From an uncultured Candidatus Saccharibacteria bacterium (GTDB lineage Bacteria; Patescibacteriota; Minisyncoccia; Minisyncoccales; JANBVM01), in NCBI GenBank assembly GCA_964435835.1, contig CAYSZX010000003.1, forward strand, positions 1-51,911: a stretch of DNA of 51,911 nucleotides, in the 5' to 3' direction. The position numbers and the translations under genes were made by a program. The notes below the pieces were generated by a model. That model did not search any database, was not told the DNA's origin, and worked only from the letters and a program-made list of their open reading frames with translations. Below are positions 20,980 through 28,822 of the stretch, piece by piece (position 1 is the first letter of the stretch; the number at the start of each line of letters is the position of its first letter).

Positions 20980-21201
20980 ATGGTTACAAAAAGTAACTTA
21001 AATTATTTTTTGAATCAAGTGGTTGGATTCATTGATGAAGAAGACGAGGCTTTTTACGAGGGTGATCTTGATAAAGAGGTAAGACTTGAAGATGAGGATG
21101 ACGATGATGATTTTGATGACGACGATGATGATTTTGATGACGACGATGATGATTTTGATGACGACGATGATGACGACGACGATGATGACGACGACTACTA
21201 A
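20980..21201 (+). CDS. Small, extremely acidic poly-Asp protein (73 aa)
   Basis: ORF flanked by its own promoter and terminator; mixed GAT/GAC codons. Confidence 0.7.
   Translation: MVTKSNLNYFLNQVVGFIDEEDEAFYEGDLDKEVRLEDEDDDDDFDDDDDDFDDDDDDFDDDDDDDDDDDDDY
21112..21174 (+). repeat. 21-bp coding tandem repeat x3 (FDDDDDD)
   Basis: TTTGATGACGACGATGATGA(T/C) repeated three times. Confidence 0.9.
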
Positions 21202-26407: not shown

Positions 26408-27265
26408 ATGAATAATTGTCCTGAATGTGGAGGCAACATCTTAAAAAATAATGTCTGCAGTAAATGTGGGTTAGTAATATCTCCCCAAATAGTTAAGGAA
26501 GTTTCTTTTAGAAGTAAACACCATGGACCAGGTACTAATATTCTTTTAGCGGGAGGAACAGGGCTTGGTTCTTTTTTGTCTCGAAAAGACCGAGATTGGA
26601 GAGGTAATCCAATTCCTCCTTCTCAGAAGGAGAAAATAAAAAGATTAAGAAAATGGCAGAATCGATTTAAGAGTTATCGCTGTCAACGAGAAAGAGCTAT
26701 TATTTTGCTTTGTCAGTTTTCTTCTTCAATTGGTATTCCTCCTTCAAGAAGAAAAAAGCCGGCAGCAATTATAAGAACTTTTTTTAATTCTGAAAAAAAG
26801 TTGACTGGGCATAGCCTTGAATATTTTGTTGCTGCAGTGATATATTTGGCATTCAAAAACAGCGAATGTCCAATACAAATTAAGGAAATTGTTAAGAAGC
26901 TGGATTTGCAATTTAAAAGCTTTTTGTCTTATATAAGAATCCTTTATGAAATATTAAGAAAAAAGGGGAAGCTTAAAACCGGGATCAAAACCAATATTGA
27001 CCCTTGCTCTTTAGTTGCTAGAATTTGTTCTAAGCTTGAACTTACTATTCCCGTGCAGAAAAAAGCTATTGAAATTATTAAGAAATACATGAACTCTCCA
27101 ATGTTTTTTGGAAAGGATCCGGCTGGGATTGCCGGGGGTGCTATCTACGTAGTTACAAGACATTACAGAACCCAAGAGGAGATTGCGGAAACAGCAGGCG
27201 TTTCGGTAGTTACATTAAGAAGTCGATATCAGGAGATGCAGGAGATGTTAAATTTAAAAAAATAA
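26408..27265 (+). CDS. Archaeal-type transcription initiation factor IIB (TFB) homolog
   Basis: Zn ribbon CPECG...CSKCGLVI; B-linker RLRKWQ; cyclin repeat 1 GHSLEYFVAAVIYLA...P..IKEI; repeat 2 GKDPAGIAGGAIY and HTH RTQEEIAETAGVSVVTLRSRYQEM. Confidence 0.92.
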   Translation: MNNCPECGGNILKNNVCSKCGLVISPQIVKEVSFRSKHHGPGTNILLAGGTGLGSFLSRKDRDWRGNPIPPSQKEKIKRLRKWQNRFKSYRCQRERAIILLCQFSSSIGIPPSRRKKPAAIIRTFFNSEKKLTGHSLEYFVAAVIYLAFKNSECPIQIKEIVKKLDLQFKSFLSYIRILYEILRKKGKLKTGIKTNIDPCSLVARICSKLELTIPVQKKAIEIIKKYMNSPMFFGKDPAGIAGGAIYVVTRHYRTQEEIAETAGVSVVTLRSRYQEMQEMLNLKK

Positions 27266-27268
27266 ATC

Positions 27269-27300
27269 AAAGGGGCTTTCTATAAGTCCTTTATTTTTTT
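27269..27300 (+). terminator. Probable intrinsic terminator after the TFB gene
   Basis: AAAGGGGCTT-loop-AAGTCCTTT followed by a T run. Confidence 0.6.
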
Positions 27301-27303
27301 ATA

Positions 27304-27332
27304 TTGACCTTGTTTTTTGAAAGCTTTATACT
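27304..27332 (+). promoter_or_regulatory. Sigma70 promoter, probably leaderless, for the ftsZ-like gene
   Basis: TTGACC-17 nt-TATACT, 8 nt before ATG 27341. Confidence 0.65.
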
Positions 27333-27340
27333 AAAAACAA

Positions 27341-28822
27341 ATGAGTAAAAATAAAAAAAGCAAAAAAGATAAAGTAAGAAAGATAAAAGTAAGGGTTGTT
27401 GGTATTGGTGGAGGAGGAGGTTCTGTTGCTTCTAAAATTTCTCGTAAAGTAAAAGAAGCTTCTTTTTACGCTGTTGATACTGATGCCAGGGCTTTAAAAA
27501 GAGTTTCTAAAAATGTTAAAAAAGTAAGACTTGGGAAAGACATTACCCGCGGTTTAGGAACTGGTATGGATTTTGAAATGGGGGAAAAAATAGCTAAGGA
27601 AGAGAAAAGTGAAATTAAGGAAATTTTTAAAGATCAGGATGTTGTTATTCTAATTGGCTGTCTGGGGGGCGGTTTTGCTTCAGGAGCAGCTTCGATTTTA
27701 GCTGATGAGTCTAAGAAAATGGGTAATATTACTTACGGAGTTTTTACTTTACCTTTTCAATTTGAAGGAAGGAAAAAAGCAAAAATTGCTAAAAAAAGCT
27801 TAAAGAAAATAAAAAAGAATATAGATGCTTTTTCTATTATTCCTAATGATAGAATTTTTAAAATTATAGAAAAATCAGCTCCTTTGAAAGAGGCTTTAGC
27901 TGTTATTAATCAACATTTAGCTCAATCAATTCGTGGATTGCTTGAAACTATTTATGGGACAGGAATTATTAATATTGATTTTGCTGACTTAGAAACTGTT
28001 TTTTCAGGAAGAGGTAAATTGGCTTATCTGAATTCAATTAGGGTGAAAAAGAAAGATAAAAAAGAGAAAGTTTTTAAAAAAATAATAGGTTCTCCTTTGT
28101 ATCCTTATACTATTAAAAATGGGAAAGGAGTTTTGTTTAATATATCGGGACAAAGAAATCTTTCTTTAGCTCAAGTTAACAATGTAGCTGAGGCTATTTC
28201 AAAGAAAGTCAGTAGAAGTGCTAAGATTATTTTTGGAATTTCTAAATCTAAAAAGAAAACTATTACCAGAGTTAATTTATTAGTTGTTGGTTGCGATGAA
28301 TCAAATCTTTTAGGAAAGAAGAAGCAAAAGTCTAAGAAAAGGAAAAAAACTAAGAAAAAAGAAAGGGTTCTTGAAGAGATTCCAGAAGAAAAAACTAAAA
28401 AGGTTAAGATTGAAAACTTGGGTTTACCTCCCAAAACAGTAAATCTTCTTTCTAAAAATCAGATTAAAACTGTAGCTGGCCTAATTCGAAGAAAAAAAGA
28501 GAGTCTTTTAGATATTGATGGAATAGGACCAGGAAGACTGAAAAAGGTTGATGAAGCCTTAGAGTTATTAGGTCTTAATTTAAAGAAAAAAGAACCTGAA
28601 AAGAAAAAAGGGGCAGAAAAAACTAAGAAAAAACAAGAAGATAAAGAAAAGCAAAAAAAAGAAAAGAAGAGTAAGAAAAAGAAGAAGAAAAAAGACAAAA
28701 AGAAAAAAAAGAAAATCAGAAAAAACGCTCTTCAGGTTAAAGAAGATATTAAAAAAGCAAAAAAGGAGATTATTTCCAAAGAAAATATGTGGGAAAAACC
28801 AACTTTTTTGCGTAAAAAATAA
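27341..28822 (+). CDS. Divergent FtsZ-family protein with inserted RNAP alpha-CTD-like domain and Lys-rich linkers
   Basis: VVGIGGGG, TRGLGTG, LGGGFASG, PFQFEG, INIDFADL, terminal EKPTFLRKK; IENLGLPPKTVNLL...I.TV..L......LL.I.GIG insert. Confidence 0.88.
   Translation: MSKNKKSKKDKVRKIKVRVVGIGGGGGSVASKISRKVKEASFYAVDTDARALKRVSKNVKKVRLGKDITRGLGTGMDFEMGEKIAKEEKSEIKEIFKDQDVVILIGCLGGGFASGAASILADESKKMGNITYGVFTLPFQFEGRKKAKIAKKSLKKIKKNIDAFSIIPNDRIFKIIEKSAPLKEALAVINQHLAQSIRGLLETIYGTGIINIDFADLETVFSGRGKLAYLNSIRVKKKDKKEKVFKKIIGSPLYPYTIKNGKGVLFNISGQRNLSLAQVNNVAEAISKKVSRSAKIIFGISKSKKKTITRVNLLVVGCDESNLLGKKKQKSKKRKKTKKKERVLEEIPEEKTKKVKIENLGLPPKTVNLLSKNQIKTVAGLIRRKKESLLDIDGIGPGRLKKVDEALELLGLNLKKKEPEKKKGAEKTKKKQEDKEKQKKEKKSKKKKKKKDKKKKKKIRKNALQVKEDIKKAKKEIISKENMWEKPTFLRKK

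Follow-up and report, generated by a model that had tools for sequence, protein, structure and literature searches.

FtsZ linkers are normally disordered, and alpha-CTDs bind DNA and transcription factors. In the alpha/beta-tubulin heterodimer, one subunit provides the catalytic residue and the other the nucleotide that is hydrolysed. In chloroplasts, the ring-tethering C-terminal peptide is restricted to FtsZ2, and FtsZ1 presumably joins the ring by assembling together with FtsZ2, according to the accessible part of the source (PMC8142252). Among Hyphomicrobiales, extra ftsZ copies are found outside dcw, most of them in truncated form, as far as the available text describes them (PMC13732431). 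A divergent second FtsZ, possibly derived from the FtsZ of CPR bacteria themselves, has been reported for some CPR genomes in the accessible text of another study (PMC9871819).

We analyzed a 51,911-nucleotide stretch (the window) from an uncultured Candidatus Saccharibacteria bacterium of the order Minisyncoccales. A sequence-only reading of the window had proposed that one gene encodes a degenerate FtsZ paralog with an alpha-CTD in its linker, which may tether the nucleoid to the division ring or membrane. In the following, G000 denotes this genome, FtsZ1 the ftsA-linked copy, and FtsZ2 the second copy, of the type found in the window. Residue numbers of the nucleotide pocket and T7 loop are those of E. 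coli FtsZ.

The second ftsZ gene and its neighbours

The Pfam scan matched all three expected families in the 493-residue FtsZ2, namely Tubulin (residues 17-176), FtsZ_C (235-315), and RNA_pol_A_CTD (PF03118; 348-408, scoring 32.2 bits where the cut-off is 23.8, E 9e-8). The match to the TIGR00065 ftsZ model reached 243 bits, below the cut-off of 295.2. Every motif named by the sequence-only reading (GGGFASG, GGGGGS, DTD, NIDFAD, and EKPTFLRKK) is present in the translation. The model and the sequence contain the disordered linker and the C-terminal core peptide that characterize members of the FtsZ family. The named homologues are Nealsonbacteria/Paceibacterales proteins, which puts the organism within the Patescibacteria. 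In G000, ftsA is not located beside this gene but adjoins the tail-less copy instead. The features of the locus are collected in Table 1.

Table 1. Features of the FtsZ2 locus (positions in the window).
Feature	Position	Strand	Basis
TFIIB/TFB-like gene; adjacent, but outside the FtsZ system	26408..27265	+	Pfam
Terminator-like hairpin, 3' of the TFB-like gene and 5' of ftsZ2	27270..27292	+	
Promoter-like site TTGACC-17-TATACT; kept 5' of ftsZ2 in G000, G001, and G002 despite differing upstream genes	27304..27332	+	
Second ftsZ (FtsZ2)	27341..28822	+	ORF, 493 aa; Pfam and TIGR00065 matches
Tubulin/FtsZ GTPase domain, altered nucleotide pocket (N24S, N43D, G103C, T108F, G109A, R142K; E. coli numbering)	27389..27868	+	Pfam, alignment
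T4 signature loop GGGFASG	27665..27685	+	Sequence, mapping on E. coli FtsZ
T7 loop, N207/D209/D212 kept; unchanged in 56/56 FtsZ2	27962..27988	+	Alignment
FtsZ C-terminal domain	28043..28285	+	Pfam
First Lys-rich linker part, low pLDDT	28295..28399	+	Sequence, model
Alpha-CTD-type domain, residues 354-415	28400..28585	+	Pfam, model, 66-68% identity to own RpoA CTD
Putative gene-conversion tract (weak), ~91% DNA identity to own rpoA	28502..28552	+	DNA comparison
Second Lys-rich linker part, pLDDT <50	28586..28717	+	Model
FtsZ2-specific C-terminal element: RKNAL motif, predicted helix 463-485, core peptide W-x-x-P-x-F-L-R	28718..28819	+	

The position directly after a TFB gene, from which a functional link had been hinted, is real in G000. 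However, a TFB-like gene lies directly 5' of ftsZ2 in only one of the 56 loci, and a terminator-like hairpin and a promoter-like site intervene, so that the adjacency is incidental and the hint is not borne out. In G001, a second insert-bearing genome (81% complete), pcm is located directly upstream of ftsZ2, and a TFB-like gene was not found. The order ftsZ2 followed by galU-like, nnrD, trxB, or eno genes recurs in 51/56 loci. Judged from gene order, FtsZ2 is encoded at its own locus outside the ftsA operon.

Archaeal-type TFIIB/TFB-like genes (loci L154-L161) occur in 13 of 61 genomes of this bacterial order (8/14 other family members), some in tandem, and TBP was not found in any of the five genomes searched. 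Elsewhere in the window, a 73-aa ORF (20980-21201) consists mostly of an Asp repeat with DDDDDDF units.

Partition of tail, pocket, and T7 loop between two FtsZ copies

By Pfam, Tubulin is matched twice in G000 (538 kb, 96% complete). The search for a canonical ftsZ elsewhere in the genome located the other copy on contig C6 (21260-22186), after ftsA. This FtsZ1 has an intact signature, comprises 308 residues, and ends where the core ends. Its presence shows that FtsZ2 is a paralog, as had been suggested. Among 301 genomes of the order, 262 have two or more Tubulin matches, 33 have one, and six have none, whereas among 145 genomes outside the order 138 have one, four have two, and three have none. 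On the sequence evidence, the gene in the window encodes the second member of an FtsZ pair found across the order.

For the alignment we used 53 FtsZ1, 56 FtsZ2, and two sole copies from 61 genomes of the order, leaving out G027 for want of a match, the incomplete genes of G005 and G009, and the third copy of G026. The tails of FtsZ1 comprise merely 1-6 residues, and the C-terminal peptide is found in 0/53. FtsZ2 tails have a median length of 117 residues and the peptide in 53/56, the remaining three being cut or masked. Sole copies within the order carry both tail and peptide in G044, G025, G232, and all seven proteins fetched from family f147 (8 genomes). A tail-less copy was found without a second one in five genomes, by FtsZ2 profile search in G325, G346, G268, and G373 and by Pfam only in G253. 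These assemblies are fragmented into 10-90 contigs, and loss of FtsZ2 is possible. In a sixth genome of this kind (G367), the end of an FtsZ2 tail was found at a contig start. Exceptions to the pattern are G231, with two matches including a tailed canonical copy, and G330, with three matches, one of them tailed. FastTree placed the FtsZ2 clade (support 1.0) among long FtsZ1 branches, a nesting that we do not trust for the order of events.

As controls for the active site, we took 50 FtsZ sequences from single-match genomes outside the order, namely the 30 with the highest Pfam scores and 20 from among the lowest. Compared with E. coli FtsZ, FtsZ2 of G000 shows N24S, N43D, G103C, T108F, G109A, R142K, and F182L, and keeps N207, D209, and D212. 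T108, R142, F182, and G103, all four changed in this protein, are invariant in 50/50 controls. The residues N24, T108, R142, and F182 are all intact in 43/50 controls and 48/53 FtsZ1 but in 0/56 FtsZ2. F182 (Phe183) forms a stacking contact with the guanine when FtsZ is in its filament state, according to the accessible text of PMC11157280. The proposed impairment of the GTP site is thus supported as far as these residues are concerned, but the glycine loops, D45, E138, N165, and N186 remain. Because of these retained residues, GTP binding or hydrolysis has more likely been altered than abolished, and FtsZ2 may still be able to bind nucleotide.

The T7 loop shows the opposite distribution. The N-D-D triad is intact in 56/56 FtsZ2 and 47/50 controls but in 40/53 FtsZ1, where G000 itself carries N207D. 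The 13 FtsZ1 changes map to about ten separate branches of the tree; Fisher's test against the controls gives p 0.013, which overstates the difference because related genomes are not independent. Within a genome, the changes in the T7 loop of FtsZ1 show no covariation with those in the pocket of FtsZ2 (p 0.78), which counts against a strict reciprocity of the two copies, and the 40 FtsZ1 with an intact T7 loop could polymerise alone.

FtsA retains R300, a residue that acts in the binding of the FtsZ C-terminal peptide, in 51/51 sequences, even though the neighbouring FtsZ1 lacks the peptide. SepF was not found in G000. The suggestion of a membrane tether is supported, and more strongly than the sequence-only reading could know, as the other copy has no tail. 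For annotation, this means that the ftsA-linked copy, although seemingly canonical, lacks the usual means of tethering itself. Preceding the W-x-x-P-x-F-L-R core at fixed spacing, an RKNAL-type motif, helical by prediction, is present in 45/56 FtsZ2 and 0/50 controls. Both arms of FtsZ2 are basic throughout the order, with a median net charge of +22 in the tail (controls -1) and +15 at the N-terminus (controls 0). Lys/Arg-rich tracts are also found elsewhere, in 12/503 ORFs. The N-termini of 4/56 FtsZ2, all from the sister genus g3 (L010, L011, L014, and L017), contain 3-4 RGRP repeats, which we take to be AT-hook-like, and at least one such repeat is present in 8 of the 120 best FtsZ2 homologues. 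Pfam AT_hook did not score on two RGRP-bearing proteins.

The genomes of the order without a Tubulin match are G027, G260, and four of the seven from family f16 (79-94% complete), pointing to possible FtsZ loss or strong divergence in that family. The third FtsZ-like match in G026 (C17:58236-58859) is very divergent, with a 411-aa frame and 30% identity. Directly 3' of ftsZ1 in G000 (C6:22278-26666), a 1462-aa ribonucleotide-reductase-like ORF contains, by eye, two apparent intein-like insertions.

The alpha-CTD-type insert in the FtsZ2 linker

We modeled the insert (residues 354-415) from a 49-row alignment with a pLDDT of 90. In the full-length model, where 2/45 alignment rows cover the insert, it reaches a pLDDT of only 55-73. 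The predicted five-helix fold with two helix-hairpin-helix motifs superimposes on solved alpha-CTDs with TM scores of 0.92 (3gfk), 0.93 (3n4m), and 0.94 (3k4g). A search against the sequences of solved structures yielded 33 distinct matches with E values no higher than 1, RpoA in almost every case. The proposal of an alpha-CTD within an FtsZ linker is accordingly confirmed by Pfam above the cut-off as well as by structure prediction. We also examined whether the insert might be an artefact of assembly. In run X1, a single contig covering 28125-28614 agrees at every position and bridges the left insert junction; X1 is possibly the source sample, and fewer than 31 letters extend beyond the right junction. 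Since X1 may be the source, the presence of this insert at an identical position in two further proteins (G001 and P0019) is the stronger argument, and an artefact is ruled out. The contigs of run X4, which may be RNA, do not cover the insert.

PF03118 is carried by three among the best 120 FtsZ2 homologues, which form one clade (bootstrap 99). The 15 next relatives (65-70% identity) lack the insert, which must therefore be optional. Without the module, the linker measures 62-79 residues, compared with 51-78 residues in relatives, suggesting one clean insertion into a linker of normal length. The fusion thus recurs, but in three related proteins only. An order-wide fusion was rejected: the module profile matched 137/301 genomes of the order, and among 150 listed of 160 module matches, FtsZ is the host only in G000 and G001. 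Most RpoA-sized frames among these matches were assigned by length only; five frames of 431-446 residues are RpoD and three of 230-247 residues are S16. No further FtsZ fusion was encountered in pattern scans of 44 of 64 metagenome parts (18 loci) and of genomes (12 loci), in which loci with proteins identical to known ones were counted once. A homolog search with the insert region alone returned only the query, and none of the best 150 of 1633 representatives contains an FtsZ core.

The insert shares 66-68% of its residues and 75% of its nucleotides with the CTD of the genome's own RpoA (G000:C1:11051-11218; dN 0.20, dS 1.08). The six copies of the genus, two each from FtsZ2, RpoA, and the RpoD N-terminus, form one clade (bootstrap 100) apart from 48 others. 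The insert thus originated within the genus, and a horizontal origin is not supported because the copies group by genus. A tree forcing the copies to follow their host genes was rejected (AU p 0.01), a hint of conversion between module copies. The FtsZ2/RpoA pair of G000 shares a stretch of 49/54 nucleotides (p 0.017), which, as one of 15 pairs, is non-significant after correction. Between species, the insert shows a dN of 0.29 against 0.12 for the core and a pS of 0.74 against 0.61. By these rates it is under purifying selection, yet changing faster than the core.

The DNA contacts of the E. coli alpha-CTD include R265, N294, and K298, as given in the available text of PMC5101437. In the insert they are replaced (R265K, N294G, and K298G), N268 and G296 are kept, and S299R adds a new Arg. 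The RpoA CTD of G000 has the same K, G, and G. Because of these replacements, sequence-specific reading of UP elements by the insert is doubtful. A general affinity for DNA is plausible, given net charges of +8 and +14 compared with +5 and +3 for the RpoA copies of the same genomes; the other module hosts, RpoD and S16, act on nucleic acids. Altogether, we put DNA binding by the insert at even chances, and the further step that such binding positions the ring on the nucleoid seems rather doubtful. A nucleoid tether through the alpha-CTD is plausible but would be at most an add-on, since 15 close relatives lack the domain.

The module has other hosts in the order. An alpha-CTD-type domain is found at the RpoD N-terminus in eight genomes of three families (L056:361-1701, L061:370-1692, L060:214-1545, and L244-L248), which besides the genus's own family are f33 and f138. 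G002 has the domain on RpoD and not on RpoA, as though the reading of UP elements had passed to sigma. In three genomes of one genus, S16 has a long charged tail ending in such a domain (L249:480-1166, L250:418-1143, and L251:442-1131). RpoA has a Lys-rich end without alpha-CTD in 5/5 family members checked (G002 and four others; L143-L147). The domain goes unmatched in over half of the order, and 36/61 genomes have no match by Pfam. Neither rpoD nor dnaG was found in the G000 assembly (96% complete), probably due to an assembly gap.

Possible roles and comparison with known systems

FtsZ2 keeps the peptide and the T7 loop that FtsZ1 lost or let drift, and we infer that it likely copolymerises with FtsZ1 and anchors the ring. 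Copolymerization of the tail-less FtsZ1 with FtsZ2 is by itself probable. The ring would be anchored by the FtsZ2 peptide through FtsA, FtsZ1 would supply the intact pocket, and FtsZ2 the strictly kept catalytic T7 loop. That mainly FtsZ1-held GTP is hydrolysed, activated by the T7 loop of FtsZ2, is possible, although its chances fall slightly short of even. The insert would be an optional module, folded by prediction, which likely adds a non-specific DNA contact to a very basic linker. Taken as a whole, this account of FtsZ2 as the tail-bearing half of a two-FtsZ system, copolymerising and anchoring the ring via FtsA with the insert as an additional DNA contact, has in our estimate an even chance of being right. 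A stricter version appears quite unlikely, in which this order of ultra-small bacteria would divide by means of an obligate alternating heterofilament parallel to that of alpha/beta-tubulin, FtsZ1 holding the hydrolysed GTP and FtsZ2 giving the catalytic loop, the FtsA anchor, and chromosome binding via basic arms that repeatedly captured binders of AT-rich DNA (alpha-CTD in one genus and AT-hooks in another).

It is also conceivable that the partition is real and the insert a passenger, a copy of the cell's RpoA/RpoD module that recombination between purine-rich tracts placed in a Lys-rich linker tolerant of insertions. Its fold would then persist only because misfolding is harmful, and gene conversion would have made the copies partly alike. 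The confinement to three proteins of one clade, the otherwise unchanged linker length, and the absence of the domain from RpoA itself in the five family members checked would suit such a passenger, as would the rejected host-gene tree together with the shared stretch that is non-significant after correction. However, the insert has been retained across species with near-saturated synonymous sites and a dN well below them, is more basic than the RpoA copies, and has a counterpart in the RGRP repeats gained on the same protein in the sister genus, so that we regard a mere passenger as somewhat unlikely.

Another possibility is that FtsZ2 is a regulator rather than a ring subunit, capping or sequestering FtsZ1 filaments, triggering hydrolysis with its T7 loop, and competing for FtsA; with DNA binding, it would become a nucleoid-occlusion factor. 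An intact T7 loop combined with an altered pocket fits a one-sided cap, ftsZ2 has a promoter-like site of its own outside the ftsA operon, and a truncated Agrobacterium FtsZ1 inhibits division according to the accessible text of PMC13732431. Yet a regulator would leave FtsZ1 without a known membrane anchor, as neither a peptide in the 53 sequences nor SepF in G000 was found, and the loss of the tail tracks the presence of FtsZ2; we judge it improbable. That the insert is a protein-binding module linking FtsZ2 to transcription, through sigma, activators, or the neighbouring TFB-like protein, is very improbable: alpha-CTDs do bind activators (Spx and CAP) in solved structures and the same module is found on RpoD in the genus, but the TFB-like gene is upstream in a single locus, separated by terminator and promoter, and was not found in the other insert-bearing genome.

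In the preferred reading of a copolymerising pair, functions of FtsZ (pocket, catalytic loop, and membrane tether) are divided between two genes in hundreds of species. Such a division offers a natural test of the step from homopolymer to heteropolymer that lies behind the chloroplast FtsZ pairs and tubulin. If the insert binds DNA, it would link the ring directly to the nucleoid without separate occlusion proteins. The main weight nevertheless lies on the order-wide partition, as the fusion alone is a curiosity of three species. The divergent CPR copy is already published and, from the available text of PMC9871819, very probably belongs to the same family as FtsZ2; that text gives its tree placement, and we did not see the tail partition, the pocket/T7 asymmetry, or the alpha-CTD fusion in it. 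A literature search, with subscription papers mostly outside its reach, found no report of an FtsZ partition or an FtsZ-alpha-CTD fusion.

The insert shares the sequence family and the predicted five-helix fold with the RpoA alpha-CTD but sits in an FtsZ linker without an alpha-NTD and differs at the contact positions; mobile copies of the alpha-CTD also occur on RpoD, S16, and many multi-copy proteins. The Hyphomicrobiales likewise have a bacterial ftsZ duplication with one tail-less copy, but with the arrangement reversed in the accessible text of PMC13732431: there the copy in dcw has its full length and the additional one is truncated, whereas here the truncation affects the ftsA-linked copy and the additional one bears the tail, contrary to the published bacterial pattern. 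As in the chloroplast (PMC8142252, accessible part), one of two FtsZs has the tethering peptide. The pair described here would work like the chloroplast one without being a member of that system, as it arose by an independent bacterial duplication and the tether is FtsA. Unlike in the chloroplast pair, it is the copy with the tail whose pocket is altered and the copy without it whose T7 loop drifts. The alpha/beta-tubulin heterodimer provides an analogy only, because the asymmetry is partial, with most FtsZ1 keeping the T7 loop, and an alternation of the two subunits is hypothetical.
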